DNA from: an uncultured Candidatus Saccharibacteria bacterium
GTDB lineage: Bacteria > Patescibacteriota > Minisyncoccia > Phycocordibacterales > UBA12079
Length of the DNA: 64,000 nucleotides
Assembly (NCBI GenBank): GCA_964608745.1
Contig: CAZSPC010000001.1
Coordinates: forward strand, 750-64,749
Direction of reading: 5' to 3'
The position numbers and the translations under genes are program-made. The notes beneath the pieces were generated by a model that saw only the letters and a list, made by a program, of their open reading frames with translations, was not told where the DNA came from and searched no databases. Positions 3,117-48,283 of this stretch are shown here, piece after piece (position 1 is the first letter of the stretch; the number at the start of each line of letters is the position of its first letter).

Positions 3117-3207
3117 AATAGCTAATAGCTAAAAGCTAAAAGCTGATAGTATTAAAATTTTCAAAGGAAATTTTTGCTATGAGCTACAAGCTATAGGCTA
3201 TAAGCTG
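3117..3207 (+). repeat. family A variant repeat (agctaaaagct arms) between rplJ and rplL
   Basis: atagctaatagctaaaagctaaaagctgatag ... ctatgagctacaagctataggctataagct inverted arms. Confidence 0.6.
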
Positions 3208-3215
3208 ACAAAGTT

Positions 3216-4254: not shown

Positions 4255-4326
4255 ATTTAGATTTCCAAAATCTTTAAAAAGCTTTGTCAATTTGATAGGG
4301 CTTTTTTCTTTTGTTATAATAACTTC

Positions 4327-4962
4327 ATGGAAATTCTGGGAAAATTATTTGGCTCACCTGCTCGGGTGAAAGTGATGAAGCTCTTTTTAGCTAACGAAGA
4401 GATTCCTTTTGATAACGAAGATATTTCAAAAAGAGCAAAAGTTCCAATGACTACATTAAGGAAAGAACTTAATTTGCTTTTAAAAGTTGGTCTTATTAAA
4501 AAGAAAGTTTTTTACAAAGAGGTTGAGAAGAAAATTAAAAAAACAAAAACAAAGCCGGCTCGGGTTGAGAAAATAAAAAAGAAAACAAATGGTTGGATAC
4601 TAAATGATAAATTTATCTATCTAATGCCTCTGTATAATCTTTTGGTTGGAACGTCTTCGTTTACTCCAAAAATAATTAATAAAAGATTGGTTGGTGTGGG
4701 TAGGCTTAAGCTAGTTTTAATTTCCGGGGTTTTGTTAAAAAATAGTGAGAGTCGTGTTGATTTGCTGGTGGTTGGTGATGGAATTAAGACTAGTTCTTTG
4801 GAGAAGGCTATTAAAACAATGGAATCTGAAATTGGAAAAGAATTAAAATACGCCGCTTTTGAAACCAATGACTTTATTTACCGGCTGAATATCTACGATA
4901 GACTGGTTCGAGATATTATTGACCATCCACATCAGAAAATAGTTAATAAAATTGGTGTTTAG
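4327..4962 (+). CDS. hypothetical protein with putative N-terminal winged-helix region (211 aa)
   Basis: ORF with terminator hairpin at 4975-5008; weak wHTH-like N-terminus. Confidence 0.4.
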   Translation: MEILGKLFGSPARVKVMKLFLANEEIPFDNEDISKRAKVPMTTLRKELNLLLKVGLIKKKVFYKEVEKKIKKTKTKPARVEKIKKKTNGWILNDKFIYLMPLYNLLVGTSSFTPKIINKRLVGVGRLKLVLISGVLLKNSESRVDLLVVGDGIKTSSLEKAIKTMESEIGKELKYAAFETNDFIYRLNIYDRLVRDIIDHPHQKIVNKIGV

Positions 4963-6987: not shown

Positions 6988-7008
6988 CAATAAAATAGTA
7001 ACCCAGTG

Positions 7009-7116
7009 CTTAGCGTTTAGGGTTGTAGAGATGAATTTTGCCTTCGGCAAAATTCATCAAAGAAAAATCTTTGATTTTTCTACCTATACCCTAAACGCTG
7101 AACGCTAAACCCTATA
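7009..7116 (+). repeat. family A structured repeat upstream of rpsC
   Basis: agcgtttagggttgtag / gatgaattttgccttcggcaaaattcatc / agaaaaatctttgatttttct / ctacctataccctaaacgctgaacgctaaaccctat. Confidence 0.75.
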
Positions 7117-7120
7117 TATT

Positions 7121-7777
7121 ATGACTCACGTAGCACACCCATACGCACAAAGAATAAAAATATTAAGAGATTGGAAGTCTCGTTGGTTTAGTATGGGTCA
7201 GCAATACAAAGATTTTTTGAAAGCTGATATTTTGATTAGAGAATATTTGGAAAACAGACTGCGGGATATGTACGTTAGCTCGGTAGATGTTGAAAGAGAT
7301 GGCGATAAAATGAAGATTATTATCAAAACATCACGAGCCGGAATGATTATTGGTAGAAGTGGAGATGGAATTCAAAAGTTGAAAAATGAGGTATTAAAAA
7401 TTATCCAAAAAAACAAACTGGTTAAACCAGAGGAATTGAATATAGATGTGGAAGAGGTGAGATACCCTGAAACAGATGCTGGAATTGTTGGTTCAATGGT
7501 TGTTGAAGGGCTTGAAAAACGAATGCCTTTCAGAAGAGTTTTGAAAATGACCGCTGACAAAGTTATGGCAAATAAAGAAATTAAGGGTGTGAGAATTGTT
7601 GTTTCTGGAAGGCTTGGTGGGGCAGAAATGGCTAGAAAAGAACAAGTAAAACAAGGCCGAGTACCTTTACAGACTTTGAGAGCTGATATTGATTACGCTA
7701 CGAAAAGAGCGAATCTACCATATGGTGTTATTGGAGTGAAAGTTTGGATTTATAAAGGAGATGTATTTAATAAATAG
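7121..7777 (+). CDS. rpsC: 30S ribosomal protein S3
   Basis: S3 KH/C-terminal domain similarity; operon position. Confidence 0.9.
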   Translation: MTHVAHPYAQRIKILRDWKSRWFSMGQQYKDFLKADILIREYLENRLRDMYVSSVDVERDGDKMKIIIKTSRAGMIIGRSGDGIQKLKNEVLKIIQKNKLVKPEELNIDVEEVRYPETDAGIVGSMVVEGLEKRMPFRRVLKMTADKVMANKEIKGVRIVVSGRLGGAEMARKEQVKQGRVPLQTLRADIDYATKRANLPYGVIGVKVWIYKGDVFNK

Positions 7778-7882
7778 CGTCTAGCGTTTAGGGTTGTAGA
7801 GATGAATTTTGCCTTCGGCAAAATTCATCAAAGAAAAATCTTTGATTTTTCTACCTATACCCTAAACGCTGAACGCTATACT
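7775..7882 (+). repeat. family A structured repeat upstream of rplP
   Basis: near-identical to 7009-7116. Confidence 0.75.
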
Positions 7883-7892
7883 CTAAAATATT

Positions 7893-8330
7893 ATGTTATT
7901 GTTTCCCAAAAAAGCAAAATATCGAAAATGGCAGACTGGACGAAAACACCCCGAGAAAAGAGGTGTGGCTACTCGTGGTGTAAAAGTTGCTTTTGGATCT
8001 TATGGATTAAAAGCTTTAACAGCAGCGAGGGTGAAAGCAAATCAAATCGAGGCTGCTCGTGTTGCAGCTAACAGGAAAATTGGTAAGTTTGGAAAGATGT
8101 GGATTAGAATTTTCCCAGATAGACCTGTAACAAAGAAGGCTGCCGAGGTTGGTATGGGTAAGGGTAAGGGTGACCCGTATGCTTATTGTGTCGAAGTAAA
8201 ACCAGGAAGGATTTTAATTGAAGTTGACGGTGTAGATGAAGCAATAGCAAGAGAAGCATTGAGAAAAGCGGGAACAAAATTTCCTTTGAAAACGAAGGTT
8301 GTTAGCCGTGAAGATTCCGAAAATATTTAA
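7893..8330 (+). CDS. rplP: 50S ribosomal protein L16
   Basis: MLLFPKKAKYRKWQTGR... L16 N-terminus; operon position. Confidence 0.9.
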   Translation: MLLFPKKAKYRKWQTGRKHPEKRGVATRGVKVAFGSYGLKALTAARVKANQIEAARVAANRKIGKFGKMWIRIFPDRPVTKKAAEVGMGKGKGDPYAYCVEVKPGRILIEVDGVDEAIAREALRKAGTKFPLKTKVVSREDSENI

Positions 8331-8332
8331 AT

Positions 8333-8455
8333 TTTCCCAAAACTAGATGATATTCGCTTTTGTTTGCACAAGAATCTCAGTCGCTGTACTTAGTACATAC
8401 ACCTTCCTCGATTCTTGCACAAACAAAAGCGAATATCATCTAGTTTTGAAAAAAT
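8333..8455 (+). repeat. family B long inverted repeat (3' element) after rplP
   Basis: aaaactagatgatattcgcttttgtttgcacaagaatc ... gattcttgcacaaacaaaagcgaatatcatctagtttt. Confidence 0.75.
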
Positions 8456-8516
8456 TTATTTCATTAAGTTGAAAATATAGAAAAAATAAGTATAGTTATT
8501 GAAATAAAAAAAATGA

Positions 8517-8632
8517 ATCCCGTTAGAGATGTTAAGTTAGATTCTTCGGGAAAATTAATAAAGTAGATATATTGATTATGTTATTAAGTTTAATTCACAG
8601 ATACGGAAACTCCGTTTCCTATCTCTAATGGG
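8517..8632 (+). repeat. family C structured element ending at rpmC start codon
   Basis: cccgttagagatg...gattcttcgggaaa...tacggaaactccgtttcctatctctaatggg; second copy at 43878-43992. Confidence 0.6.
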
Positions 8633-8833
8633 ATGAAAGATTTAAAAAAGAAAACTGAAAAAGATTTACAAAAAATGTTGCAGGAAAAGAGAAAAACTCT
8701 TAGAGAATTTCGATTTGGATCTTCGGGAAGTAAAACCAAGAATGTAAAGGAGGGAAGTAATACTAAAAAAGAAATTGCTAGAATTTTAACAGAATTGAAA
8801 CAAAGAGAATTAGGGGGGTTAGAAAAGAAATAA
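8633..8833 (+). CDS. rpmC: 50S ribosomal protein L29
   Basis: Small helical protein with L29-like KELREFRF motif; operon position. Confidence 0.8.
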   Translation: MKDLKKKTEKDLQKMLQEKRKTLREFRFGSSGSKTKNVKEGSNTKKEIARILTELKQRELGGLEKK

Positions 8834-8968
8834 TTTTAATTTGTAAATTTTAAATTTTAATTCAATTTTAAATTATTAAATGAATAAATAATAAAAAAAT
8901 AAAATAATTAAAATTTAGTCATTGAATTAAAATTTACAAATTAAAATTTAAAATTTGAATATATAATA
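8834..8968 (+). repeat. family D AT-rich inverted repeat
   Basis: aatttgtaaattttaaattttaattcaat ... attgaattaaaatttacaaatt; related copies at 15496-15642 and 51857-51962. Confidence 0.5.
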
Positions 8969-9242: not shown

Positions 9243-9355
9243 AAGCGTTTAGCGTTTAGGGTTGTAGGAATGAATTTTGCCTTCGGTAAAATTCATCAAA
9301 GAAAAATCTTTGATTTTTCTACCTATACCCTAAACGCTGAACGCTATACCCTAAG
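9243..9355 (+). repeat. family A structured repeat upstream of rplN
   Basis: same architecture as 7009-7116. Confidence 0.75.
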
Positions 9356-9359
9356 CAAT

Positions 9360-9731
9360 ATGATTCAACCACAATCAATAGTAAAAATAACAGATAACTC
9401 AGGTGGAAAAATCGGCCGTGTTTTCAAGGTTATCGGTGGTTCAAAAAAGAGATATGCTCGAATTGGGGATGTTGTTGTTTTGTCTGTGCAGTCGGCAGAA
9501 CCACGAAAACAGGTAAAGAAAAAAGATGTTCTAAGAGCGGTAGTTGTCCGACAAAAACAACCTTTGAGAAGAAAGGATGGGTCATATATTTATTTTGATG
9601 AAAATTCAGTAGTGATTATTGATAAAGAAAAGAAAGAACCAAGGGCAAATAGGGTTTTTGGACCAATTCCGAGGGAGATTTCGGAAATGGGGTATCAGAA
9701 GATTGCATCGTTGGCCCCAGAAATAGTGTAA
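9360..9731 (+). CDS. rplN: 50S ribosomal protein L14
   Basis: MIQPQSIVKITDNSGGK matches L14 N-terminus; upstream in-frame codons are repeat-derived. Confidence 0.9.
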   Translation: MIQPQSIVKITDNSGGKIGRVFKVIGGSKKRYARIGDVVVLSVQSAEPRKQVKKKDVLRAVVVRQKQPLRRKDGSYIYFDENSVVIIDKEKKEPRANRVFGPIPREISEMGYQKIASLAPEIV

Positions 9732-9733: not shown

Positions 9734-9833
9734 AGCGTTTAGCGTTATAGCATTTAGCGTTGTAGGGAAAATTTTGGCTTTAGCCAAAATTTAAAAAAAT
9801 CTATAACCCTAAACGCTAAACCCTACAACCCTA
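9734..9833 (+). repeat. family A structured repeat upstream of rplX (covarying hairpin aattttggctttagccaaaattt)
   Basis: arms agcgtttagcgttatagcatttagcgttgtag / ctataaccctaaacgctaaaccctacaaccctac. Confidence 0.7.
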
Positions 9834-9840: not shown

Positions 9841-10149
9841 ATGAAAATCAAAAAAGAAGACAAAGTAATAGTAATTGCCGGAAAGGATAAAGGAAAAACT
9901 GGAAAAGTTTTGAAGGCTTTTCCTGCTGAAAACAAAGTTATTGTTGAAGGTGTGAATATTAAGAAAAAACACCAAAAAGCAACTAGAAGTGGTCAGAAAG
10001 GACAAATAATCGATAAGACTTATCCAATTGATGTTTCAAATGTTATGTTAGCCGATCAAAAGAGTGGAAAACCAACGAGAATAGGAAAGAAATTGGTAGG
10101 TGATAAATTTGTTCGTGTAGCAAAGAAAAGTGGAACAGTTATTAAATAG
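9841..10149 (+). CDS. rplX: 50S ribosomal protein L24
   Basis: KOW motif IVIAGKDKGKTGKV; operon position. Confidence 0.9.
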   Translation: MKIKKEDKVIVIAGKDKGKTGKVLKAFPAENKVIVEGVNIKKKHQKATRSGQKGQIIDKTYPIDVSNVMLADQKSGKPTRIGKKLVGDKFVRVAKKSGTVIK

Positions 10150-10245
10150 CTTATAGCTTCTAGCCGATAGCTTATAGTGAAAAATTTGCCTTTGGCAAAT
10201 TTTTCAAAAGAAAGCTATCAGCTATGGGCTATAATCTATAAGCTT
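10148..10245 (+). repeat. family A variant repeat (agcttatagc arms) upstream of rplE
   Basis: cttatagcttctagccgatagcttatag / gaaaaatttgcctttggcaaattttt / gctatcagctatgggctataatctataagct. Confidence 0.7.
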
Positions 10246-10280
10246 AGAAACTATAAAATCAAAAAATAAATAAAAATACT

Positions 10281-11621: not shown

Positions 11622-12134
11622 TTATATATTTTCGATAGGGAGTTTAATAAAACCCTCCGTATTTTCAAATACCGAAACAGCACCTGCTACTGGTTTCTTA
11701 ACCAGTAAACCGTTGATTAAAATAGGAAAATCTACCGGTGTTGAGAGTATTTTTAGAACAGCAATGAAGTCTCTTCTCATCTGGGTGTTGTCTTCTTTTA
11801 AGATACTCTCCGTTATGTTGGGATGATCTATTAAGGCCATTCCTAATGTACCTTGATCGATTTCTAGTTTTTTCACATTAAACTTTACCGATTTAGCCGT
11901 TTTCCAAAAATATCTAATAAGTACATTTGGTATTCTTGTTAAGACAACAACTTTTTGGTTTGCAACATAATTTATTTGACCTGTATGAGTTTTAGTTGCA
12001 GTAAATCCATTATAAGGACTTATGCTAACATGTATTTTCTGGCAAAAGCTATAAAAATCTAACATGTCGGGATGGGCAAAAAAATTAAACATATAATCTG
12101 TGAATCCTTTGTTCCCATGAAGAATTAGTTCCAT
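11622..12134 (-). CDS. hypothetical cytoplasmic protein (170 aa) inserted between rplE and rpsN
   Basis: GGAG SD on minus strand; flanked by hairpins 11490-11620. Confidence 0.4.
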   Translation of the reverse strand: MELILHGNKGFTDYMFNFFAHPDMLDFYSFCQKIHVSISPYNGFTATKTHTGQINYVANQKVVVLTRIPNVLIRYFWKTAKSVKFNVKKLEIDQGTLGMALIDHPNITESILKEDNTQMRRDFIAVLKILSTPVDFPILINGLLVKKPVAGAVSVFENTEGFIKLPIENI

Positions 12135-12262: not shown

Positions 12263-12384
12263 ACTGCAAGTTATATTGAGTGTGTGGGTTGGGGATATTG
12301 CCCAGCCGTACTTTTATAAAATAAATTTTATAAAAGATACAGCTGGACTATATTTTTCTAATTCGCTTCGCTCAAAAGAAAAAT

Positions 12385-12570: not shown

Positions 12571-12584
12571 ACTATGAACACGAA

Positions 12585-12693
12585 GCTAATAGCTTATAGC
12601 CGATAGCTTATAGCCGATAGCTTATAGTGAATTTGCCAAAGGCAAATTTTTCAAAAGAAAGCTATCAGCTATGGGCTATAAGCTACAAGCTTG
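12585..12693 (+). repeat. family A variant repeat (agcttatagccgat tandem arms) upstream of rpsH
   Basis: arms tandemly repeated 14-mer; central hairpin gaatttgccaaaggcaaattt. Confidence 0.7.
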
Positions 12694-12766
12694 GTTGTGT
12701 TTGTAACAATCTGTGATAATTAACGAATATTTGGGCTGTAGCACAAGCTAGACGCCAAATAATAAT

Positions 12767-13165: not shown

Positions 13166-13255
13166 AGCGTTTAGCGTTTAGCGTTGTAGGGAATAAATTT
13201 TAACTTTAGCCAAAATTTAAAAAAATCTATAACCCTAAGCGCTACAACCCTATAA
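13166..13255 (+). repeat. family A structured repeat upstream of rplF
   Basis: agcgtttagcgtttagcgttgtag ... ctataaccctaagcgctacaaccctat. Confidence 0.7.
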
Positions 13256-13267
13256 TCCTAATAAAAT

Positions 13268-13801: not shown

Positions 13802-13925
13802 ATTCCCAAAATTGGCACATTTCGCTTTTGTTTTGGCAAGAATTTCAGTCTCGCAGTATTAGTTTATACAGCTTCTTCAATTCTTGCCAAAACAAAAGCG
13901 AACTGCACTCAATTTTGAAAATTTA
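13802..13925 (+). repeat. family B long inverted repeat after rplF
   Basis: cccaaaattggcacatttcgcttttgttttggcaagaatt ... aattcttgccaaaacaaaagcgaactgcactcaattttg. Confidence 0.75.
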
Positions 13926-15495: not shown

Positions 15496-15642
15496 GATAT
15501 AATCTATTTGATTTTAAATTTTAAGTTATAAATTTTAAATTTTAATTCAATTTTTAATGATTAAATTTTTTAAACATTTTAAATTTATAAATTGTATTAT
15601 TGAATTATAATTTTAAATTTATAATTTAAAATTGTTATAAAT
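15496..15642 (+). repeat. family D AT-rich inverted repeat upstream of secY
   Basis: ataaattttaaattttaattcaat ... attgaattataattttaaatttataa. Confidence 0.5.
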
Positions 15643-16911: not shown

Positions 16912-16980
16912 AATATAAACAAAATATATTTTTCCAAAAAGGTGGGGGTCGGACCCCCACCTTTTTGGTATAATGAAACT

Positions 16981-17664
16981 ATGTCAAGAAAAAAAGTAAA
17001 ATTTAGTGTCGGATGTTTCTACCATGTTTATAACAGAGGTGTTGATAAAAGAGAGATTTTTTCTGATAAACAAGACACACTTAGGTTTATAGAGAGCCTA
17101 GATGTGTTTAATACAATAGAGCCCATTGGTAGTATTTTTGCAGAAAAGAAAAGGGGTAGGGGTCGGACCCCTACCCCACCTACCCCAAAAAAACAAAAAG
17201 GAAAGCTAGTTAATATTATCGCTTATTGTCTCAACCTAAATCACTACCATTTTGTTTTAGAAGAAATTGTTGAGGGTGGTATAAGCGAGTTTATGAAAAG
17301 GTTAGGGGGTGGTTATACGGGATATTACAACATTAAATATAAGAGAAATGGAGTTTTATTTCAGGGAAAATTTAAGACGGTGCATATAAAAAAAGACGGT
17401 CAGTTGGAATATACGGTTGACTATGTCAATTTAAACAATTTGGTTCATAAAAAATTTGACGGTACCAAAAAACATTTTTTAGACGACATTCCAGCTAGAT
17501 CTAGTTGGAATGAATATATCAATGAAAATATAAAGGGTATTTGTGGCAAAGACATTATTCTTGATGTTTACAAAAAAGCGTATAGAAGTAGAAATACATA
17601 TGAATCTAGTGCCAAAGAAACATTAAAAATGGTAAGAGAGATGAGATACGGGGATGAAAAATAA
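16981..17664 (+). CDS. REP-associated tyrosine transposase (RAYT, IS200/Y1-transposase-like) copy 1
   Basis: YHVYNRG, HUH motif NHYHFVLEE, G-YTGYYN, LFQGKFK, YVNLNNL (RAYT YIHLNPV-like); flanked by palindromes at 16941-16962 and 17665-17690. Confidence 0.75.
   Translation: MSRKKVKFSVGCFYHVYNRGVDKREIFSDKQDTLRFIESLDVFNTIEPIGSIFAEKKRGRGRTPTPPTPKKQKGKLVNIIAYCLNLNHYHFVLEEIVEGGISEFMKRLGGGYTGYYNIKYKRNGVLFQGKFKTVHIKKDGQLEYTVDYVNLNNLVHKKFDGTKKHFLDDIPARSSWNEYINENIKGICGKDIILDVYKKAYRSRNTYESSAKETLKMVREMRYGDEK
17152..17176 (+). repeat. REP-like palindrome (ggtaggggtcggacccctacc) embedded in-frame inside RAYT-1
   Basis: encodes linker RGRGRTPTPPTP; same palindrome repeated at 16941 and 17668. Confidence 0.7.
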
Positions 17665-17801
17665 GTAGGGTAGGGGTCGGACCCCTACCCTTGTTTTATC
17701 CCCATTTTTATTATATATAAAATCAAAAATACTGTGTTAAAATATAAGTAATATCGGATTTTTCTATTTGAGTAAGTAGATGGTGAGTAATTAAAAAATA
17801 A

Positions 17802-20800
17802 ATGGAAAAACATAAGCTGAAAATTTATATTTTACTAACAGTTGCTTTTTTGATGGTGGCTGTCTTTTTGCCGTTGAATATTACGAAAGCAAAAGAAATT
17901 TTGGTGGGCGAAAAAATATCCCAAGAGATTGAAAAAGTTATCGATTTACTTGAAGTTTTGGCTAAAAATACCTTTAGTTTTTTTGTAGAAAATAGGGCTG
18001 ATGGAATCAAAAAAATAGTTAATTCAACTAATAATCTTTTCATTTATGTTTATGTTGCTGATCCAAAATTCGAAGAAAAAGACAAAAATAAGGTAGAGTT
18101 TGCACAAAAAAAAGAAATCGAAGAACCAAAGCTAGAAATTCAAACTCAAAAAATTGTTTTTGTTGGACTTGTGGATGATTTTCGTCAAACTATTTTAGAA
18201 TTTATAAACCTAACGAAAATCTTTTCTCAAAATGTTTTAGAAGGAGCAAGTGAAGTTCGAAAAATAACAATTGATTTAACAACTAAATCTTTAAAAGATA
18301 CCCAATGGCTAATTCAAGAAAACAATTCTTTGGTTAATGGTATTCTAGGTAAAGGAGTTAAACAAGCTCAAAAAATTGTAATTTTTGCTAGTGAATTTAC
18401 AAATATTTACTATATTCAACTTGGAAAAATAACAACTAGAATACCTGATGTAGCAACTACCATAGTCACAAGTGCTTTTGATGATGTTCATATGGTTGTT
18501 AAAATCAATAACGATTTTGTAAACAACACTCTTGGCCGAGGAGTAAAAAAAATAAAAGTTACCGCAATTTGGACAACCAGCTTATTATCTTCAATGGATG
18601 ATAATTTTAAAAACCTGGCTCTAAGAATTTACAAAAACACAACAAAACTAACATCAGATACTTTTACTCAGATTAAAAAAACAACCCGCCAAGTAAAATT
18701 CCTTTTCTCTGAGTCTTTTGTGGGTTCGGGGATTGTTTTGGGTGAGAAAAAAGATTATCTTTTGGCTTCGGCTTATCGACAATCAAATCGAGGAAAAACA
18801 GTTCTTGAAAATACAGCTGTAAAAACATATAGATTTTTTAACAACTTGCTTATCTTTAATTTTGGCAATAATGAAGTGATTGTTGTTGAAGAAGAAAAAC
18901 ACAACGAACTAAAAGAGGAACCACAAAAAGAAATACAAAATGTCAATCCGCCTAAGGTAGAAGAGCAGGTAAAAGTAGTTTATCAACCAACTAATACAAT
19001 TGTTGAAAGAGTAATTCAGGCAACTAGTGGTGTAACACCAGCAGATCTACAAAAACTAAAAAACGAATTATTGCAAGAGATTTACAGAATGGCAGATAAA
19101 TCAACACCAACTATATATCCAATATCTAACTACGCAGCTATTGCTCACACAAACAAAATTGATCAACTAAATTCTGTTACTATCAATTCATCAGCAATCA
19201 GTGGCGGGACTATTAGCGGAGCAACAATAACTAACACACCAATTTCCGGTTCAACTGGATCATTCACAATACTTTCGGTGTCTGATAGCGCAACAATTGG
19301 GGGACAATTTACAGCAAATAGTGCCTCAACAACCCAATTAACTGTTTCTGACCGATCTTGGTTTACTGGTTTAGCTTCTTTTGGTAATGCAACAACTTCA
19401 AACTTAACAGTAACCGGAATACTTTATGACTCAGACGGAGAAGCTGGTATATCGGGTCAAGTTCTTTCTACCACAGCAACTGGAACGAGTTGGACAACTA
19501 ATTCTTCAACCCAAGATTCAGACGGAGATACAATGATTCAAGCAGAAGAATCAGCTGACGAAGATAAAATTAGATTTGATACTGCCGGAACAGAAAGGAT
19601 GGTTATTGATGAAGATGGAAAAATTGGAATAGCAACAACTTCACCTTTATCAAAACTAACAATCTTCGGAGATGTGTTCCTAGACGGAGCAAATCGTTAT
19701 CTGAATTTTGGTACAACTACTGCTACTTCATCTGCTGGTTATGGTATTAGAGATAATTTAGGAACAATACAATACAAAAACCTAGGAGGTTCTTGGGCTG
19801 ATGTTGGAAGTGGAGGAGGGTCAGGAACAGTAACTTCTGTTGATATGACAGTCCCAACCGGATTATCTGTTTCAGGAAATCCAATTACTACATCTGGCAC
19901 ACTAGCTCTAACCTATTCTGCTGGTTATGAAGGGCTAAAAACAGCTTCATCAACTAACTGGAATACTTTCTACGATACTCCTTCAAACAGAATCACGGCT
20001 GGAACAGGATTGAGTTGGTCAACTAACACACTTAATGCTGAAGTACAATCATCAGATTTAAATAACTACCTTTCACTAGTAAATTGGTACGCAACAACAA
20101 CTCACGAAAATATTTCTTCTCTCCCTTCGCTTTCAATCACAGAATCACAAATTTCAGATCTTGATCATTTCGATGGAGGAGGTTTTTACACATATTTCAA
20201 TGCAACTAATACGGATGCTCTTAGCGAAGGTTCTTCAAACCTTTATTACACAGACGCAAGGGCTCGATCTGCCATCGATTCTTCTGCTACAGGATTAACT
20301 TATACACCAGGGACAGGAATCTTTTCTCTAACCCCTGGTTACAACATTCCATTAACAGCCAGCACAACTAACTGGAATAATTTTTATGATACTCCTTCGG
20401 GTCAAATTACAGCAGGAACAAATATTTCTTGGTCTTCAAATACTTTAAATGTTGATGATGCGTTTTTAATTAATAATGGAGATGATGCAACTACGGGACA
20501 GCTTACCGCAGCAAACTTTGTAGCTTCGTCCGGTACAGCAACTTCCACATTTGCCGGTGGCTTGAATGTAGGAAGCGGAGGTTTGATTTATGATTATTCG
20601 AGTGGAAAAGTAGGTATTGGAACAGATTCTCCGGTTACTAATTTAGAAATAAGTAGTAACGAAACAACAGAATTGAGAATTGGACATGGAAATAATTGGA
20701 ATGGTGCCTTGTCGTTTTATGAGGGAGGAGTACCTTCTTGGTCTTTTTATAACGTTGGAAATGGCGACTTGTTTCAATTTAATTATGCTGGTACAGGAAT

Positions 20801-23501
20801 GGCTACATTTGAACCAGGTGGTGATGTTGGAATAGGAACAACCTCACCTTTTGCTAAATTATCAGTAGCGGGTAATGGTTATTTTGACGGAAATGTGACA
20901 GCTTCAATTTTTACAGCTACAAGTACAAGTGCCACCTCCACTTTTCCATATTTTTCAGCCTCCCAATCTAATCTTGGTACGGTAGTAGGAGGAATCTGGA
21001 ACGGCTCCTCGATTGCTGATGCTTATGTTGACAATGATATTACCGCTTCAAATTATCTTTCGTTGACCAACTGGTTTGCAACAACAACTCACTCACTAAT
21101 TTCAAGCTTGCCTAATCTGTCTGTTACAGAATCACAAATTTCAGACCTAGATCATTACACAAACAATGATTGGGATATTAGAATGACATCAACAACAACC
21201 CTTCCCTCAATAACAACATTAGCTAACTTAGCTACGGTTGGAACAATTGGAAGTGGAGTTTGGAACGGAACTGCTATTGGTGATACTTATCTAACCAAAA
21301 CAGGCAATTGGACAGGAACATTTGATGGGCAAGAAGGTTCTTATTACCTAGATGCTGATAATCTAAACGACTTTGATAATCCTTTCTATACCTACTTCAA
21401 CGCAACTAATACGGATGCTTTGAGCGAAGGATCAAGTAATTTTTATGCGACTCAAAGTCGTTGGGATAGTTTTTGGAACGCATCAACTACATTAAGTAGC
21501 GTTACTTCTGTTCCTAATCTATCTATCACAGAATCTCAGATATCTGACTTACAAAATTACTTGGCTTTGGCTAATTGGTATGCAACAACAACTGATGGAC
21601 TAACACAAGGTTCAGCAAATCTATACAATCAAACTCACACAGGAGAAGTAACAGGATCTACCGCTTTAACAATTGCTAACAATATTATTGATGAAGCTAA
21701 TCTAAAACTAGACACTTCACCAACTGACAACTACATTCTAATTGCTTCTTCTACAGCAAGTGGAGGAATGGATTGGGTAGCAACCTCTTCTCCTCTTTTG
21801 AATTTATCCTCGGGTGGCGGAGGTTCTTCAGCTCTAACTCACACAAATATTTTTGTTGGAAATTCTTCAAATATAGCAACAGCAACTTCATCTTTGGTTA
21901 TTTTGGACAATGGGAATATAGGAATAGGAACAACTTCACCTCTAACCTCACTATCCCTCGAAGGCACAGCCGGAACACCTATAATGAACATTGCTAATTC
22001 AACTGGTGCCAGTGCTTTGTATGTTGATGAGGGCGGAGATATTGGCATCGGGATGACCGCTCCAACCTCCAAATTTCATGTAGTAGATACATTAAGCGCA
22101 GCTACTGGTGATGAAGTAGTATATTCTCTTAATTATACAACCAATAAAGCAACTAGTGGAAATGATACGGGGTTACAGATAAACATGACGGATACAGCGA
22201 GTCCTGGAACGAGCTATTTAATTGATGCTCGTGTTGGGGGTACAAGTAAGTTCTGGGTTGATTCTAGTGGTAACGCTTTAATTGCTAATGGAATGAGGCT
22301 TGGTTCTGCAAATGCTTCGATTAGCCCAGCAGGAAGTAAGCTACTACTTAATTCAACCGAAAAGATTGAAATGAGATTATGGGGTGATATTTCATCTGGT
22401 AATGCTTTTGAGTTTAAACCTGGTATGGCAGGTTTGCAACTGACCGGGTCAAGCGGAGTTCAATCATTTTTAAGTATAATACCAGAAATCAATCAGAGTG
22501 GAACAGCTGGATATAATGGTATATTTCTTAATGTTACAGAAACAGGAATTGGTAGTGGTCCTAATAATTTAATTGATTTGCAGGTAGATAGTTCAAGTAA
22601 ATTTTTGGTTGATAATACCGGTAACGTCGGAATCGGGACAACTTCACCATATTCAAAATTATCTGTTTGGGGAGACGCTCTTGGAAATATTTTTGAAGCA
22701 ATTACAAATTCTTCAACAACAGCTATGGTAATTAATGCAATTGGTGATATTGGCATTGGAGTAACCGATCCTGATAAGAAATTAGAAGTATTCGAGACAG
22801 TTGCTGATGCACAAGTTAAAATTTCTTATGATGCAACTCGTTATGCGAACTTGCAAGTTGATTCTGTTGGAGATTTAATTATTGATCCTCAAGGAAATGA
22901 TTTATTCTTAAATGACGATAACCTGTTTTCTTGTACAGGAGGTTCGTGTCCTGCTGGCAATCCAACCGGAACAGGTAATATAGTGGTTGAAAATAAAGTA
23001 GGTATTGGAACCACAACTCCTGCCTACAAATTATCAATTGAAACCCAAGATTCATCAACTAATTTATTACAAATAGCATCTAGTACTAATCAAAATATAT
23101 TTACAATCAACTCCGATGGAGATATTGCTATTGGAACATCTAGTCCGTTTGCGAGATTTTCTATTGGATCAGGGGGGGCTATTGTTGTTGAAGAAAATAC
23201 TCTTATTGATGGAGCAACTATTACAGTTGATTGGCGAGATGGTAATCAGCAAGATGTTGAGTTAGGTGGAAACAGGACAATTAATTTCTCAAATTACACT
23301 CCTGGACAAACATTGCGTCTGCTTGTTTGTCAAGATTCGACTGGTTCAAGGACAGTTACTTGGGATTCAAACATAGATTGGAATGATGCCACAGCTCCTA
23401 CTCTTACAACCACAGCAGATAAATGTGATGTGATTGCGTGTATTGCGACAGAGGCAAAGGGTGTTTTGGATGTCTTTTGTACAGCGACGTTGAATTTTTA
23501 A
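17802..23501 (+). CDS. giant secreted/cell-surface protein (1899 aa), tail-fibre-like repeat protein
   Basis: N-terminal TM/signal; Thr/Ser/Gly-rich; many (K/D)IGIGTTSP(x)xKLSV repeats and 3 copies of SLSITESQISDLDH / FNATNTDALSEGSSN(L/F)Y units. Confidence 0.6.
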   Translation: MEKHKLKIYILLTVAFLMVAVFLPLNITKAKEILVGEKISQEIEKVIDLLEVLAKNTFSFFVENRADGIKKIVNSTNNLFIYVYVADPKFEEKDKNKVEFAQKKEIEEPKLEIQTQKIVFVGLVDDFRQTILEFINLTKIFSQNVLEGASEVRKITIDLTTKSLKDTQWLIQENNSLVNGILGKGVKQAQKIVIFASEFTNIYYIQLGKITTRIPDVATTIVTSAFDDVHMVVKINNDFVNNTLGRGVKKIKVTAIWTTSLLSSMDDNFKNLALRIYKNTTKLTSDTFTQIKKTTRQVKFLFSESFVGSGIVLGEKKDYLLASAYRQSNRGKTVLENTAVKTYRFFNNLLIFNFGNNEVIVVEEEKHNELKEEPQKEIQNVNPPKVEEQVKVVYQPTNTIVERVIQATSGVTPADLQKLKNELLQEIYRMADKSTPTIYPISNYAAIAHTNKIDQLNSVTINSSAISGGTISGATITNTPISGSTGSFTILSVSDSATIGGQFTANSASTTQLTVSDRSWFTGLASFGNATTSNLTVTGILYDSDGEAGISGQVLSTTATGTSWTTNSSTQDSDGDTMIQAEESADEDKIRFDTAGTERMVIDEDGKIGIATTSPLSKLTIFGDVFLDGANRYLNFGTTTATSSAGYGIRDNLGTIQYKNLGGSWADVGSGGGSGTVTSVDMTVPTGLSVSGNPITTSGTLALTYSAGYEGLKTASSTNWNTFYDTPSNRITAGTGLSWSTNTLNAEVQSSDLNNYLSLVNWYATTTHENISSLPSLSITESQISDLDHFDGGGFYTYFNATNTDALSEGSSNLYYTDARARSAIDSSATGLTYTPGTGIFSLTPGYNIPLTASTTNWNNFYDTPSGQITAGTNISWSSNTLNVDDAFLINNGDDATTGQLTAANFVASSGTATSTFAGGLNVGSGGLIYDYSSGKVGIGTDSPVTNLEISSNETTELRIGHGNNWNGALSFYEGGVPSWSFYNVGNGDLFQFNYAGTGMATFEPGGDVGIGTTSPFAKLSVAGNGYFDGNVTASIFTATSTSATSTFPYFSASQSNLGTVVGGIWNGSSIADAYVDNDITASNYLSLTNWFATTTHSLISSLPNLSVTESQISDLDHYTNNDWDIRMTSTTTLPSITTLANLATVGTIGSGVWNGTAIGDTYLTKTGNWTGTFDGQEGSYYLDADNLNDFDNPFYTYFNATNTDALSEGSSNFYATQSRWDSFWNASTTLSSVTSVPNLSITESQISDLQNYLALANWYATTTDGLTQGSANLYNQTHTGEVTGSTALTIANNIIDEANLKLDTSPTDNYILIASSTASGGMDWVATSSPLLNLSSGGGGSSALTHTNIFVGNSSNIATATSSLVILDNGNIGIGTTSPLTSLSLEGTAGTPIMNIANSTGASALYVDEGGDIGIGMTAPTSKFHVVDTLSAATGDEVVYSLNYTTNKATSGNDTGLQINMTDTASPGTSYLIDARVGGTSKFWVDSSGNALIANGMRLGSANASISPAGSKLLLNSTEKIEMRLWGDISSGNAFEFKPGMAGLQLTGSSGVQSFLSIIPEINQSGTAGYNGIFLNVTETGIGSGPNNLIDLQVDSSSKFLVDNTGNVGIGTTSPYSKLSVWGDALGNIFEAITNSSTTAMVINAIGDIGIGVTDPDKKLEVFETVADAQVKISYDATRYANLQVDSVGDLIIDPQGNDLFLNDDNLFSCTGGSCPAGNPTGTGNIVVENKVGIGTTTPAYKLSIETQDSSTNLLQIASSTNQNIFTINSDGDIAIGTSSPFARFSIGSGGAIVVEENTLIDGATITVDWRDGNQQDVELGGNRTINFSNYTPGQTLRLLVCQDSTGSRTVTWDSNIDWNDATAPTLTTTADKCDVIACIATEAKGVLDVFCTATLNF

Positions 23502-26457: not shown

Positions 26458-26499
26458 TATTAAACTTTAAACTTAATTTAAACTTGTTATAATAATCTT

Positions 26500-27867
26500 A
26501 TGAAAAACTTTTTTCATTTTATTCAATATAATAATGCATTTCCAATAATACTTGGTATTATTTTTCTTGGCGGCGGGACTGTTTTTGCAGCGACAAATCC
26601 TGAAATTATTTATGAAAAAGAAGAACACATTATTTCAATAGATAATACATATATTGTTGAAAAAGATTTGAATGGGTTTACCCCAACTGTGCAAATAATT
26701 GAAGTAACAGAAGATGACAAAAATTATTTTGTATCGTATTTGTTTACAACCATAGATTTGAAAGATGCTGTCTGGCAGGATGTTGAAAAAGAAAATATTA
26801 TGGCTATTTCAAAGGTTGATTTGGGCCAATATCGTGATTTAGGTTTCTATGTGATGGGGCAGTTACGGCAAAAAATAGAGAGGGAGATTGCTTATTTACA
26901 AGAAGTTCAAGGTTTTGAAAAAGAAAGTGTTACCCAAAAGACTGTTGCTACAAAATATGGTGGTTTAGTTGGGGCAATTATGGATGATAAAACAGAAGTA
27001 TTGCCTGGTTATATTCCTGTTGTGGAAGTTGTGGATCTAGAAGATAAGTGGCAAAGACCGGCAGATGACGGAAACAAAGAACAAAAAACCAACAACAATC
27101 AGTCGAGTTTGACTAGCGGTCCAAGTATTCAAATACTCGGAAATAATCCAGCTTGGATTACTTTAAAATCTTCTTATATAGATCTTGGTGCTATTGCACA
27201 TGATTCTAATGGTTATGATTTGACTATTAAATTATTACTAAATGGTAGTGAAACTAAACATATTCAGATTGATACTTCGACAACTTCAGAATATATAATC
27301 ACATACCGTTCTACTGATGGAGGAGGAAATACGAGCGAGGCGATACGACATATAGTTGTTTACGATCCGACTGTTCAAACCCCTCCGCCAGCAAATTCGG
27401 TCATTCCTACTATTCCAGATAAAATTGAAGAAAATGAGTATCAAGATCAAGATGAAAATGAAGAAGTTCAAAATGAGGTGGGCAATGAGAACGAAGAAAC
27501 TCAGGAACCGGAACTAACCTGTAACGAAAACAACCTAAACCTCTGTAATCAAACAGAATGTGAAGATCTAAGCTATCACTGGTATGATAATCAATGTAAT
27601 GTAGACGAAGAAGTAGTCGAAGACACAACAGCACCATTAATTACCTTACTTGGAGATGAAATAGTAGAAATAATATTAAACGAAGAATACACAGATGCAG
27701 GAGCAACAGCCAACGACGAAACAGATGGAGACATTACTCCAAACATCATCACCAATAACCCAGTCGATACATCAACTACTACATCCTATACAATCACTTA
27801 CAATGTTCAAGACGAAGCAGGGAATCAAGCTGAAGAGATTACAAGAACAGTAAATGTTGTTGAATAA
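26500..27867 (+). CDS. secreted protein with two DUF5011-type Ig-like domains and acidic Cys-containing linker
   Basis: N-terminal signal/TM; two repeats of G-NP--I--G--Y-D-GA-A-D---GD-T...Y-ITY...D--GN pattern. Confidence 0.5.
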   Translation: MKNFFHFIQYNNAFPIILGIIFLGGGTVFAATNPEIIYEKEEHIISIDNTYIVEKDLNGFTPTVQIIEVTEDDKNYFVSYLFTTIDLKDAVWQDVEKENIMAISKVDLGQYRDLGFYVMGQLRQKIEREIAYLQEVQGFEKESVTQKTVATKYGGLVGAIMDDKTEVLPGYIPVVEVVDLEDKWQRPADDGNKEQKTNNNQSSLTSGPSIQILGNNPAWITLKSSYIDLGAIAHDSNGYDLTIKLLLNGSETKHIQIDTSTTSEYIITYRSTDGGGNTSEAIRHIVVYDPTVQTPPPANSVIPTIPDKIEENEYQDQDENEEVQNEVGNENEETQEPELTCNENNLNLCNQTECEDLSYHWYDNQCNVDEEVVEDTTAPLITLLGDEIVEIILNEEYTDAGATANDETDGDITPNIITNNPVDTSTTTSYTITYNVQDEAGNQAEEITRTVNVVE

Positions 27868-27878
27868 TTGAATAAACA

Positions 27879-27908
27879 AAAAAAGTGGGTGTCGGACACC
27901 CACTTTTT
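27879..27908 (+). repeat. REP-like palindrome (agtgggtgtcggacacccact, inverted centre) upstream of RAYT-2
   Basis: reverse-orientation copy of ggtgggtgtccgacacccacc. Confidence 0.65.
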
Positions 27909-27916
27909 TTGTTAAT

Positions 27917-28594
27917 ATGATTATAATGAGAATTTATTTTGAAAAAGAAAGACACTACCATATTTATAATAGAGGTACAGATAAACGGGAGATATTTACA
28001 GATAAATACGATGTATATAGATTTATAGAAAGTATAGAAGAGTTTAATTGTGTTGGAGTTAATAATGATATTTTTCATTCTGAAAGGTCGAGAAAACGTC
28101 AAATAAAAAGAGGTGGGTGTCCGACACCCACCAAATATGAAAAAAGTGGCCAAAAACTTGTCAATATTATTGCATATTGTTTGAACCCGAATCACTATCA
28201 TTTTATTTTGGAAGAGTTGGTTGAAGGAGGAATAAGTGAGTTTATGAAAAGATTAAACGGAGGTTATTCCAGATATTACAATATAAAATATGGTAGATCT
28301 GGATCATTGTTTCAAGGAAAATTTAAGGCAAAATATATAAAAGAATCACTTCTTTATGTTTCTGCTTATGTTAATTTGAATAATCTTGTTCATAAAAAAA
28401 TTGACGGGACTAATTCGTATTTTATGGATGATATTGTTAATAGGTCGAGTTGGAGTGAGTATATTCAAGAAAATCCAAAATTTGAAATTTGTGAAAAAGA
28501 CTTTTTACTTAGTAGATATAACACTAAGTTAGAATATAAAAAAGATGCAGAGGAAATATTGAATACAATAAAAGAAAAACGTTATGAAGATTAA
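27917..28594 (+). CDS. REP-associated tyrosine transposase (RAYT) copy 2
   Basis: about 60% identical to copy 1; HYHIYNRG, NHYHFILEE, LFQGKFK, YVNLNNL; internal REP at 28112-28132 encodes RGGCPTPT; REP at 28594-28627 downstream. Confidence 0.75.
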   Translation: MIIMRIYFEKERHYHIYNRGTDKREIFTDKYDVYRFIESIEEFNCVGVNNDIFHSERSRKRQIKRGGCPTPTKYEKSGQKLVNIIAYCLNPNHYHFILEELVEGGISEFMKRLNGGYSRYYNIKYGRSGSLFQGKFKAKYIKESLLYVSAYVNLNNLVHKKIDGTNSYFMDDIVNRSSWSEYIQENPKFEICEKDFLLSRYNTKLEYKKDAEEILNTIKEKRYED

Positions 28595-28680
28595 AAACGG
28601 TGGGTGTCCGACACCCACTTTTTTTGTTTTATTTTTGTGTATAATAGTTAGTGTTTATTAAATAGAAAATAATATTAGAT

Positions 28681-32067: not shown

Positions 32068-32208
32068 TTATTCCAAAATCGGCGAACTTTGGTTTTGTTT
32101 TTTAAAATTTTCTAAGGTTACCCGGTAACCTAGCCTATCGGCCTGGTTACCGGGTAACCGAAAATTTTAAAAAACAAAACCGAATTTCATCCAATTTTGG
32201 AATAATTG
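32068..32208 (+). repeat. family B-like long inverted repeat
   Basis: ccaaaatcggcgaactttggttttgtttttt...ggttacccggtaacc...aaaaaacaaaaccgaatttcatccaattttgg. Confidence 0.55.
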
Positions 32209-32254
32209 ATTTTTGGGTTTAATTTTTTAGAACAAAAAAGCTATAATATTATAG

Positions 32255-33267: not shown

Positions 33268-33385
33268 TAGGGTTATAGGGCTTAGCGTTTAGGGTTATAG
33301 GTAAAAAACCTTTGATTTTTTGATGAATTTTGCCTTTGGCAAAATTTGTCTCCCTACACCCCTAAACGCTAATCGCTAAACGCTT
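33268..33385 (-). repeat. family A structured repeat upstream of rplT (inverted, matching gene orientation)
   Basis: order of inner hairpins is reversed on + strand, i.e. element is oriented with the minus-strand gene. Confidence 0.7.
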
Positions 33386-33391
33386 TAAATA

Positions 33392-34408: not shown

Positions 34409-34466
34409 AATTGGCTAATTTATACCATTTATTTAAGTCAAAAACAACTTATGTTACAATACTTTT

Positions 34467-35054
34467 ATGAAAGATCGGACAGAAAAATTAAAAAAAATAA
34501 AAGACGAACTTTTAGATTTTAAGGAATCGCCTTTATATCAATACAGGATAGATAATAAATGCTTTCCGGTAATTGGAGAGGGGGATCATAATGCTGAAAT
34601 TATGTTTATCGGTGAAGCACCAGGTAAAAACGAAGCAATGACAGGTAGACCTTTTTGTGGGGCATCGGGAAAAATGTTAGATACATTACTGGAATCTGTT
34701 GGGATAGATAGAAAAGATGTATATGTAACCAATATTGTAAAAGATCGTCCTCAAGACAATCGCGATCCGTCAACAGAAGAAATAAAATTATACGGACCTT
34801 TCTTAGATAGGCAAATAGAAATAATTCAACCGAAAATAATAGCAACTCTTGGGAGGTTTTCAATGGAATACATAATGAAACATTTTGGACTGGAAAGTCA
34901 GCTTGAGCCAATAAGTCAAGCTCATGGAAAATCCTATGAAGCGAGTTTTTCTTATGGTAAAGTAAAGATTATTCCTTTATATCATCCGGCTGTTGCTTTG
35001 TATAATGGTGGAATGCGGGAAACTTTATTAGAAGACTTTAAAATATTAAGATAA
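34467..35054 (+). CDS. uracil-DNA glycosylase, family 4
   Basis: GEGDHNAEIMFIGEAPGKNE...GRPFCGASGKMLD motif A and HPA motif B. Confidence 0.8.
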   Translation: MKDRTEKLKKIKDELLDFKESPLYQYRIDNKCFPVIGEGDHNAEIMFIGEAPGKNEAMTGRPFCGASGKMLDTLLESVGIDRKDVYVTNIVKDRPQDNRDPSTEEIKLYGPFLDRQIEIIQPKIIATLGRFSMEYIMKHFGLESQLEPISQAHGKSYEASFSYGKVKIIPLYHPAVALYNGGMRETLLEDFKILR

Positions 35055-38483: not shown

Positions 38484-38889
38484 AGCGTTATAGCGTTTAG
38501 GGTTGTAGAAAATTTATGTATTCAAAATCTTTTAAACATTTACAAGTCTGGCAGAGATCAATAGAGCTGGTAAGAGAAGTTTATAAAATTACAGAAAGTT
38601 TTCCTAAGAACGAAACATACGGATTGGTGAGTCAGATGAGGAGATCGGCTGTTTCGATACCGTCAAATATTGCCGAGGGTTATAAAAGGAGAGGGCTCGG
38701 AGATTACATTCGTTTTTTAGGTGTATCTGAAGGCTCCTCTGCTGAGTTAGAAACCCAAATTATAATCTCTAGAGATTTATACAAGGAAATTAATTTTGCA
38801 AAAACCGAAGCTCTACTCGAAGAAGTTCAAAAAATGTTATTTGTTATGATTAAAAACCTAAACGCTAAACGCTAAACACTACAACCCTA
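38484..38889 (+). repeat. family A repeat whose loop is occupied by a four-helix-bundle gene (split arms 38484-38507 and 38856-38889)
   Basis: left arm gcgttatagcgtttagggttgtag; right arm aacctaaacgctaaacgctaaacactacaaccctat encodes the protein C-terminus KNLNAKR. Confidence 0.7.
38516..38875 (+). CDS. four-helix-bundle protein (23S rRNA intervening-sequence protein family)
   Basis: VWQRSIELVREVYKITESFPKNETYGLVSQMRRSAVSIPSNIAEGY...SSAELETQ matches the IVS-protein family. Confidence 0.8.
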   Translation: MYSKSFKHLQVWQRSIELVREVYKITESFPKNETYGLVSQMRRSAVSIPSNIAEGYKRRGLGDYIRFLGVSEGSSAELETQIIISRDLYKEINFAKTEALLEEVQKMLFVMIKNLNAKR

Positions 38890-39545: not shown

Positions 39546-39625
39546 AAGCGTTTAGCGATTAGCGTTTAGGGTTGTAGAGAACAAATTTTTACTATAACCC
39601 TAAACGCTAAGCCCTATACCCTAAT
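39546..39625 (+). repeat. family A repeat (no central mini-hairpin) upstream of rpsL
   Basis: agcgtttagcgattagcgtttagggttgtag ... ctataaccctaaacgctaagccctataccct. Confidence 0.65.
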
Positions 39626-39628
39626 TTT

Positions 39629-40163: not shown

Positions 40164-40226
40164 ATATTTTTGAAATTATTTATAATTTACTAAAAACTAA
40201 AAACTATTTAACTAAAAACTAACGCT

Positions 40227-43866: not shown

Positions 43867-43877
43867 AATTTTATTTA

Positions 43878-47856: not shown

Positions 47857-47861
47857 TAAAT

Positions 47862-48276: not shown

Positions 48277-48283
48277 TAATTTT

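Follow-up and report, generated by a model that had tools for sequence, protein, structure and literature searches.

A small palindromic element joined to start codons in Patescibacteria, probably mobile and of MITE/REPIN-like kind

What is the structured element that twice, within 64,000 nucleotides of a patescibacterial genome (the whole stretch analysed, hereafter the window), ends exactly in the start codon of a gene? One copy, at 8517-8634, lies before rpmC and the other, at 43877-43993, before a GNAT gene. The preliminary description that drew attention to them saw in their geometry a means of sequestering the start codon, as in a riboswitch or thermosensor, or else a small self-processing RNA. 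The two copies, here termed Family C, are present where it placed them and are 86% identical over about 118 nt. A covariance model, R1, trained on all four copies of Family C now known, scores copy 1 at 128 bits (E about 1e-22) and copy 2 at 117 bits (E about 1e-20), and finds no third copy in the window. Both copies terminate in gggATGaaa, as reported, and the ATGs are true starts: the downstream ORFs are confirmed by Pfam as L29 and GNAT, and L29 begins MKDLKKK, in agreement with the N-termini of its orthologues. The features of the two loci are as follows.

8469-8496, + strand: promoter-like TTGAAA-16-TATAGT before copy 1 (10/12 matches), corresponding to the internal rpmC promoter of relatives
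8513-8517, + strand: ATGAA repeat to the left of copy 1, with 16 nt between it and the -10 box; would open a 17-codon uORF, MNPVRDVKLDSSGKLIK
8517-8531, + strand: 5' arm (left terminal inverted repeat) of copy 1, ATCCCGTTAGAGATG
8532-8604, + strand: variable interior of copy 1, its length kept across genomes, its sequence only within this genome
8605-8619, + strand: subterminal hairpin of copy 1, GGAAAC-TCC-GTTTCC, the stem invariant in four copies
8620-8634, + strand: 3' arm (right terminal inverted repeat) of copy 1, TATCTCTAATGGGAT, which ends in the AT of the rpmC start codon
8633-8637, + strand: right ATGAA repeat of copy 1, the working rpmC start (L29 gene 8633-8833)
43856-43864, + strand: extended -10 box TGTTAAAAT, of the leaderless type seen elsewhere in the window, within the 3' end of the hydrolase gene upstream and 8 nt before the left repeat of copy 2
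43873-43877, + strand: decayed left repeat of copy 2, ATTTA (3/5 matches to ATGAA)
43877-43891, + strand: 5' arm of copy 2, ATCCTGTTAGAGATG, with a C-to-T change that retains a U-G pair
43892-43963, + strand: variable interior of copy 2
43964-43978, + strand: subterminal hairpin of copy 2, GGAAAC-TTT-GTTTCC
43979-43993, + strand: 3' arm of copy 2, TATCTCTAACGGGAT, overlapping the AT of the GNAT start codon
43992-43996, + strand: right ATGAA of copy 2, the GNAT acetyltransferase start (gene 43992-44462)

Each copy is framed by a 15-bp outer stem, ATCCCGTTAGAGATG pairing with TATCTCTAAYGGGAT (8517-8531 with 8620-8634; 43877-43891 with 43979-43993). The arms were recovered as reverse complements in both window copies, and over the four known copies 95% of cells in these 15-nt terminal inverted repeats are paired. 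This is the outer stem already described, with one correction: the base preceding ATCTCTAA is T and not C, so that the innermost pair is G-U. The last two pairs take in the A and U of the start codon. The inner hairpin, confirmed in both window copies with loops TCC and TTT, has the general form GGAAAC-N3-GTTTCC and abuts the 3' arm; since no spacer separates them (0 nt) the two helices can stack, giving 6 + 15 = about 21 bp. The z-scores of folding against shuffled sequence are -3.1 and -3.9 for the two window copies, and the minimum free energy of the whole element is -32 to -35 kcal/mol in three copies and -25.8 in the remaining one (L002, below). That the start codon lies within the closing stem is borne out by the predicted folds, in which its AU and the preceding 13 nt are paired in 4/4 copies. 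We infer from these folds that at the RNA level the start codon would be closed in a panhandle, which may be cut by RNase III. Family C is 113-115 bp long, and its own coding capacity amounts to a uORF of 15-37 codons alone.

Beyond the window, a genome collection and a metagenome collection were each scanned once with an exact pattern, and two further copies are known from other Patescibacteria: L001, in a Patescibacteria MAG (JBBUHS01; 45% GC), where the copy precedes gatB, and L002, in a metagenome contig (JACCDV01 assembly; 37% GC), where it precedes an ORF of 290 aa that has no Pfam match. Both end in CGGGATGAA, whose ATG is the start codon of the gene. The known copies are thus only four, from three genomes. 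A degenerate form of the element, in which some mismatches are tolerated, is CCYGTWAGAGAT-N70-80-GGAAAC-N3-GTTTCCTATCTCWAAYGGG. Model R1 found no further copies in 25 fetched loci, and neither a solo arm nor a longer element with the same ends was seen in the window or in those loci. Two metagenome sequences, L003 and L004, carry the GGAAAC hairpin but no arms, and were taken as chance matches or fragments; four pattern scans of viral contigs gave only chance matches inside coding regions (L021-L023), and BLAST against plasmids only AT-rich noise.

Comparison of the four copies shows which parts of the element are kept. Only sequences with an exact match to a 3' motif could be caught by the database scans, and the conservation seen at that end, whose arm is also kept across genomes, is in part an artefact of the search; the 5' arm was left out of the search patterns and its conservation, 15/15 in L001 and 13/15 in L002, is therefore independent of discovery. 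The hairpin stem is invariant in 4/4 copies, with loops TCC, TTT, GTA and AAA. Between these ends the interior keeps its length, at 74, 73, 72 and 74 nt; its sequence is clearly related between copies 1 and 2 (z = 7.9), every between-genome comparison gives z < 1, and its GC content tracks that of the host. The TCTYCGGGAAA block noted earlier as conserved is found in both window copies but is missing from those in other genomes, and is specific to this genome, the interior being common to the window copies alone. The check envisaged in the preliminary description, a search for more copies and for covariation, has thus yielded two further copies but no covariation: none of the 21 pairs has undergone compensatory change, two have passed to wobble in the window copies (C-G to U-G; G-C to G-U) and three are broken in L002. 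What appears to be conserved is the sequences of the ends and their spacing, not a structure with a conserved core. The wobble-compatible substitutions in the arms, on the + strand, hint at selection on RNA or on a single-stranded + strand, and the near-identity of the ends beside saturated interiors suggests selection stronger than would be expected for a decaying selfish element; both points tell against the mobile-element reading preferred below.

These data bear first on the proposal that the element is a cis-regulatory leader RNA of the host, riboswitch-like, protein-binding or thermosensing, in which the closing stem keeps the start codon covered and is opened by a signal. Such a leader would account for the enclosure of the AUG by a stem in all four copies, none of which has a Shine-Dalgarno sequence, for the strong conservation of the ends in three genomes, and for the two substitutions that retain wobble pairs in the window copies. 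But the interior, where a ligand pocket would lie, cannot be aligned between genomes, the pairs show no compensatory change and three of them are broken in L002, and the four genes downstream (L29, GNAT, GatB and the 290-aa ORF) are functionally unrelated. A thermometer is in addition unlikely with a near-perfect stem of 15 bp, which would be too stable. A further objection, set out below, is that the element is missing from the same genes in close relatives.

Nor is a known RNA family recognizable. Searching Rfam gave no relevant match to the window at gathering thresholds, nor any at E <= 10 to copy 1, copy 2 or the L001 copy. The ribozyme families (hammerhead, twister, twister-sister, pistol, hatchet, HDV-like and hairpin) returned nothing in the window at the Rfam gathering score and nothing reaching E <= 10 on the same three copies. 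The earlier judgement by eye was that hammerhead and twister cores are not matched. The companion suggestion of a self-processing RNA, in so far as it means a known self-cleaving ribozyme, is excluded within the reach of Rfam, and outside the helices there is almost no conserved sequence from which a catalytic core could be made. Rfam matches of miRNA type do occur nearby, and belong to a neighbouring long hairpin at 8331-8455. Certain other classes were considered and set aside: a tRNA-like substrate of RNase Z or P, which is similar in topology (a hairpin abutting the 3' strand of a terminal stem) but has a helix of 12 bp as against 21; an attC/integron site, in which the order of the GTT.../...AAC boxes is the inverse of that seen here; an archaeal bulge-helix-bulge intron, there being no bulges at the borders; and a retron ncRNA, there being no reverse transcriptase gene downstream.

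The history of the rpmC locus can be approached through its relatives. The window comes from a Patescibacterium close to Candidatus Campbellbacteria; its L16 protein has best matches of 92%, 89% and 81% identity, and in eight relatives (81-92% L16 identity) the L16-L29 junction is without Family C. There the junction measures 43-107 nt, or 268 nt with unrelated elements, and reads TTGACT/TTGAAA, 16-17 nt, TATTAA/TAATAT/TATAGT, 9-13 nt, then ATGAAA, the L29 start; GTATAGTTA at the rpmC promoter is common to the window, L006 and L020. In the window the homologous promoter is followed by 16 nt, ATGAA, the element, and then ATGAAAGAT / ATGAAAGATTT. The left ATGAA occupies the ancestral position of the start codon, because in the relatives the promoter leads to ATGAAA at that point, and we read it as the likely ancestral rpmC start and left half of a target-site duplication. 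The sister genome (GCA_964449555.1; 92% L16 identity) has an unrelated hairpin leader in the same rpmC slot; the slot between promoter and ATG is one repeatedly colonised by different hairpin elements. The GNAT locus is similar in that three homologues of the gene (56%, 47% and 46% identity) have no element, the one in relative L025 reading TGATATACT, 7 nt, then ATG. The element is accordingly polymorphic for presence and absence at both loci, and the two window copies, which sit at unrelated loci within 64 kb, nevertheless share their interior. The comparison with relatives shows Family C at rpmC to be, on this evidence, an insertion, and that between the window copies shows an apparent duplication within the genome.

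For the regulatory leader, absence of the element before rpmC in eight close relatives and before the GNAT gene in three homologues adds to the objections already given, and we consider that reading decidedly improbable. The preliminary suggestion of riboswitch-like control does not, in our view, survive them.

Flanking repeats may be a second mark of insertion. A 5-nt direct repeat flanks 3/4 copies and is decayed in the fourth: ATGAA in copy 1 and L001, ATGAATCC in L002, where the repeat is 8 nt long, and ATTTA on the left of copy 2. Two features weigh on the other side: the 8-nt length in L002, and the uniformity of the repeat among copies, which would equally suit a left ATGAA that belongs to the element itself. 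The two ATGs of a copy are 118-120 nt apart, and a fixed frame between them was rejected, the distances holding none constant.

The promoters point to the kind of gene that was hit. In copy 2 (TGTTAAAAT), L002 (TGTTACAAT) and L001 (TATAAT) the left repeat is preceded, at a distance of 8-9 nt, by a -10 box, so the genes concerned were leaderless or had a very short leader, and their whole 5' leader is now formed by the element. Such an arrangement is not peculiar to these loci: the motif TGnTAnAAT-N6/7-ATG occurs 12 times in the window against 0.84 expected, 10 of the 12 being at ORF starts, and L001 and L002 have the same leaderless-type geometry at other genes. Many genes of this lineage appear to be leaderless. 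All four copies of Family C lie at start codons; as 24 of the 72 ATGAA sites outside gene bodies in the window are gene starts, the chance of this is about 0.012, or ~1 in 80.

Taking these data together, we favour the view, which we think probable if by no means secure, that Family C is a MITE/REPIN-like mobile palindromic element inserting at start codons. It would insert at 5'-(A)TGAA-3', either duplicating the target or bringing an ATGAA of its own, as the empty sites and flanking repeats suggest, and the surviving copies would be those that landed on the opening codons (ATG AAn) of genes whose leader is absent or very short. We propose that the gene survives because the right-hand ATGAA rebuilds an intact start codon, while the left-hand ATGAA, the old start, would stay by the promoter, free to decay. 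In the mRNA the two ends of the element would pair, bringing the 5' end and the start codon together at the foot of the 15-bp helix, prolonged to about 21 bp by the stacked hairpin. Judged from its geometry, this panhandle should close the start codon and block 5'-exonuclease. Expression could then proceed in either of two ways: the helix might be opened, for example by ribosomes loading co-transcriptionally on the old 5' AUG, or RNase III might cut it, leaving an mRNA with a short leader.

The second of these routes touches on another reading, that the element is a processing module: self-cleavage at the 3' border, or RNase III acting in the 21-bp stacked helix, would separate it from the mRNA and leave a leaderless or near-leaderless message. 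It would explain why in every copy the element stops exactly at the AUG on its 3' side, and is in keeping with the leaderless or short-leader state of the host genes before insertion; the stacked helix of 15 + 6 bp is in the size range of dsRNA. RNase III and RNase J are kept in at least 90% of CPR genomes (PMC12641178), and there is a precedent in Correia elements, transcripts of which are cleaved by RNase III at the inverted repeats (PMC10969869). But the ribozyme families of Rfam gave no match, there are almost no conserved unpaired nucleotides from which a catalytic core could be made, and RNase III would cut within the stem, not at the AUG. We hold this reading to be a minor possibility; it is compatible with a mobile element.

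The left ATG raises the question of a leader peptide, namely that translation of a leaderless uORF, MNPVRD..., melts the 5' arm and is thereby coupled to the main start. The codons ATG AAT CCC GTN AGA GAT are kept in 3/4 copies, both substitutions in the 5' arm fall at third codon positions (CCC to CCT, GTT to GTA), and the uORF of L001 spans the whole element, its stop 4 nt before the AUG. Copy 2, however, lacks the ATG (ATTTAT), the peptides, of 15-37 aa, are unrelated beyond residue 6-7, the 38-codon ORF of L001 is within chance at 45% GC, and the 3' arm is equally conserved though non-coding in 3/4 copies. A padded chimeric query of 42 aa (the L001 uORF joined to the L002 read-through) matched no protein in a search whose word index was possibly non-exhaustive. 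A coupling device of this sort seems very unlikely.

Selection might also act on the DNA itself, if a recombinase or a dimeric DNA-binding protein uses the hairpin palindrome and the arms as operators; the RNA fold would then be incidental. Operators typically have the form seen here, a perfect 6-N3-6 palindrome whose 3-bp spacer is free, a loop of 3 nt is unusual for RNA hairpins, and it is sequence rather than pairing that is conserved. Yet this leaves the fusion to the start codon and the flanking repeat unexplained, and no cognate protein was identified: a winged-helix gene follows the GNAT gene but was not found beside the other copies. We give this idea the least credence of all, regarding it as scarcely probable.

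The mobile-element reading can be carried further, to a 'start-codon-homing' element adapted to leaderless genes. Such an element would enter the single-stranded (A)TGAA of an open promoter complex, where start codon and transcription start are one, and would always rebuild the start codon at its own 3' end; its panhandle would either mimic a 5'-terminal AUG, by setting the 5' end of the mRNA beside the real AUG, or be clipped off to give a leaderless mRNA. This extended form is speculative and we think it unlikely to hold as it stands, but if true it would describe a mobile element that turns leaderless genes into ones with structured leaders, and would make visible one way in which 5' UTRs originate in Patescibacteria.

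The favoured reading itself, a MITE/REPIN-like mobile element, would have consequences if correct. Family C would be a MITE-like element of bacteria that inserts in strict relation to the start codon itself and keeps the gene intact through a rebuilt ATGAA; a formerly leaderless gene would have gained a structured 5' leader; and leaders, with possible translational control, would be seen to arise by insertion in the streamlined genomes of Patescibacteria. It also carries a warning for annotation, that conserved stems of this kind which close a start codon should not be called riboswitches.

How, then, does Family C compare with systems already known? It resembles MITEs in being small (113-115 bp) and non-coding, in having terminal inverted repeats and in its presence/absence polymorphism; an autonomous element or a transposase linked to Family C ends was not found in the window or the 25 loci. 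Correia elements of Neisseria (CREE/NEMIS) and similar MITEs (ERIC, RUP) are 100-155 bp long, are bounded by terminal inverted repeats and duplicate a short target (PMC2649163, PMC10969869). Correia elements are also co-transcribed with a neighbouring gene, and the dsRNA of their inverted repeats can be cut by RNase III, altering adjacent expression, where for Family C processing is only predicted. Their sequence is unrelated, however, their target is TA rather than (A)TGAA, and they have no fixed start-codon register and hundreds of copies.

The intervening sequences (IVSs) of 23S rRNA are sporadic inserts of ~100-150 nt whose paired ends form a long stem around a variable interior, and which RNase III removes without religation. 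Unlike Family C they lie in rRNA helices, not in mRNA leaders, and have no flanking start-codon repeat. Rickettsia palindromic elements (RPEs), too, are small palindromic mobile elements that survive where the gene stays functional, but they sit in frame inside ORFs and are translated, whereas Family C lies just upstream of the rebuilt start and overlaps it by two bases. With leaders that sequester start codons, such as riboswitch platforms and RNA thermometers, the likeness is one of geometry only, the enclosure of the AUG in a helix; Family C has no conserved sensor domain, covariation, conservation at orthologous genes or Rfam family. IS200/IS605-derived PATEs (palindrome-associated elements) have a subterminal hairpin at each end, lack terminal inverted repeats, and insert 3' of a fixed target of 4-5 nt that is not duplicated. 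The constant 5-nt left flank of Family C, and the hairpin lying 13-14 nt inside its right border, would suit such an element, but Family C has no left-end hairpin and does have inverted repeats of 15 nt, and the Y1 transposases of the genome are not linked to it.

REPINs, too, bear comparison. They are hairpin-forming doublets of REP sequences that owe their mobility to RAYT tyrosine transposases; their inverted ends are conserved, and what counts in the spacer is chiefly how long it is and whether it can fold into a hairpin (Bertels & Rainey 2011, PMC3116915). Family C units are likewise about 100 nt long and non-coding, with inverted, conserved ends of ~16 nt and a spacer kept in length and not in sequence; hairpins are predicted in ssDNA or mRNA, and the genome has Y1-transposase genes. 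The differences are that Family C arms are not small palindromes with a GTAG/CGTC tag, that the interior is not palindromic, so that there is no whole-unit hairpin, interior folds differ and compensatory changes are lacking, and that copy number appears low. No RAYT gene is flanked by Family C arms: the two Y1_Tnp-like genes of the window, at 16981-17664 and 27917-28594, are flanked instead by GC-rich hairpins of GGTGGGTGTCCGACACCCACC type. Lastly, REPINs are placed at random in extragenic space, whereas Family C, with its flanking ATGAA repeat, is fused to starts in 4/4 copies, against an expectation of roughly 1 in 3 for each. The literature searched holds no description of a fixed start-codon register combined with a link to leaderless genes, and the term 'start codon' is absent from the MITE review. 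It is this fixed register with the start codon, together with the link to leaderless genes, that is the new aspect of Family C.

The L002 copy (4438-4570) of Family C, the inverted-repeat element fused to start codons, comes from a locus in another Patescibacterium and is flanked by a direct repeat of 8 nt (ATGAATCC), not 5; its uORF begins MNPVRD and the downstream ORF MNPEEN, and a T-to-A change in both arms creates two adjacent A-A mismatches. Its right-end hairpin, identical in the loop too, is found on the minus strand of the metagenome locus L003 (1078-1100) as a solitary ACGGAAAC-AAA-GTTTCCTATCTCA hairpin without Family C arms, either a possible remnant or a match that arose by chance.

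Copies of a second repeat family in the window form hairpins that are very long and near-perfect (AAAACTAGATGATATTCGCTTTTGTTTG...). Between rplP and the rpmC promoter, one of them lies directly 5' of the Family C copy before rpmC; the family's plant-miRNA matches in Rfam were rejected as spurious.

Copies of the long near-perfect hairpin:
8331-8455
13803-13921
32070-32246
40041-40201
47859-48019
48672-48831

The slot between the rpmC promoter and ATG holds Family C in the window and, in the sister genome, another structured leader family, whose 3' end, CTAAYTCRCTTCGYTCAWAAG, is followed by 6-10 A-rich nt and then ATG. Relatives carry this leader before rpmC and rplN (L005/L006/L007).

Leader family in the window:
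12358-12378, before rpsN/S14 at 12385
59580-59600, minus strand, before a hemerythrin gene at 59573

Gaps between ribosomal-protein genes are also occupied by Y-shaped hairpins of about 124 nt (AGCGTTTAGCGTTTAGGGTTGTAG ... CTAYAACCCTAAACGCTRAACGCT). Start codons without a Shine-Dalgarno sequence lie 5-15 nt past their ends, and at the same junctions the gaps of some relatives are only 2-20 nt.

Y-shaped hairpins, about 124 nt:
7005-7128
7776-7899
9244-9367
Shorter relatives of these:
2510-2599
9734-9832
13166-13259
33277-33390
38852-38889
39547-39645
46554-46652
48180-48278
52633-52754

Further intergenic families in the window, likewise found between ribosomal-protein genes, consist of short tandem units.

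Tandem-unit hairpins:
3118-3215, 10146-10260, 12582-12700, ATAGCTTATAGC...
8832-8960, 15517-15640, AT-only, TTTTAATTTGTAAATTTTAAATTTTAATTC...

In relatives (L008, L011, L020) a small repeated hairpin, TCTGTAAACTGTAAACTGTTTACTGTAAACTTAAAAA, stands just 5' of ATG, at two different junctions of one operon (L22-S3 and S17-L14). This makes intergenic hairpin cassettes a trait of the clade, with families that vary by lineage.

An extended -10 box, TGnTAnAAT, placed exactly 6-7 nt 5' of a start codon was matched 12 times in the window against 0.84 expected, an excess which implies that a large share of this Patescibacterium's genes would be transcribed as leaderless mRNAs. Clear Shine-Dalgarno sites were seen at about 14 other genes.

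TGnTAnAAT boxes before start codons:
4312-4329
16966-16983
26485-26502
34452-34469
43282-43299
54907-54925
57893-57911
59734-59752
60660-60678
63072-63089, minus strand

The window also has two ORFs of note and two paralogous IS200-like, RAYT-like Y1 transposase genes. The shorter ORF, antisense inside the ribosomal-protein operon, had no Pfam match; the longer has internal repeats of about 59 nt (at 19600, 20803, 21895 and 22603).

ORFs and Y1 genes:
11622-12134, minus strand, 170-aa ORF between rplE and rpsN
17802-23501, 1899-aa ORF
16981-17664, Y1 gene
27917-28594, Y1 gene

By tblastn the Y1 genes matched a Pfam Y1_Tnp protein from the sister genome (E 1e-44 and 1e-38), and each is flanked by GC-rich hairpins of GGTGGGTGTCCGACACCCACC type.

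GGTGGGTGTCCGACACCCACC-type hairpins at the Y1 genes:
16924-16970
17144-17176
17658-17690
27867-27913
28095-28141
28582-28628
Further occurrences:
10816
54210
59107

The arrangement of Y1 genes with flanking GGTGGGTGTCCGACACCCACC hairpins is similar to that of REP/RAYT systems.
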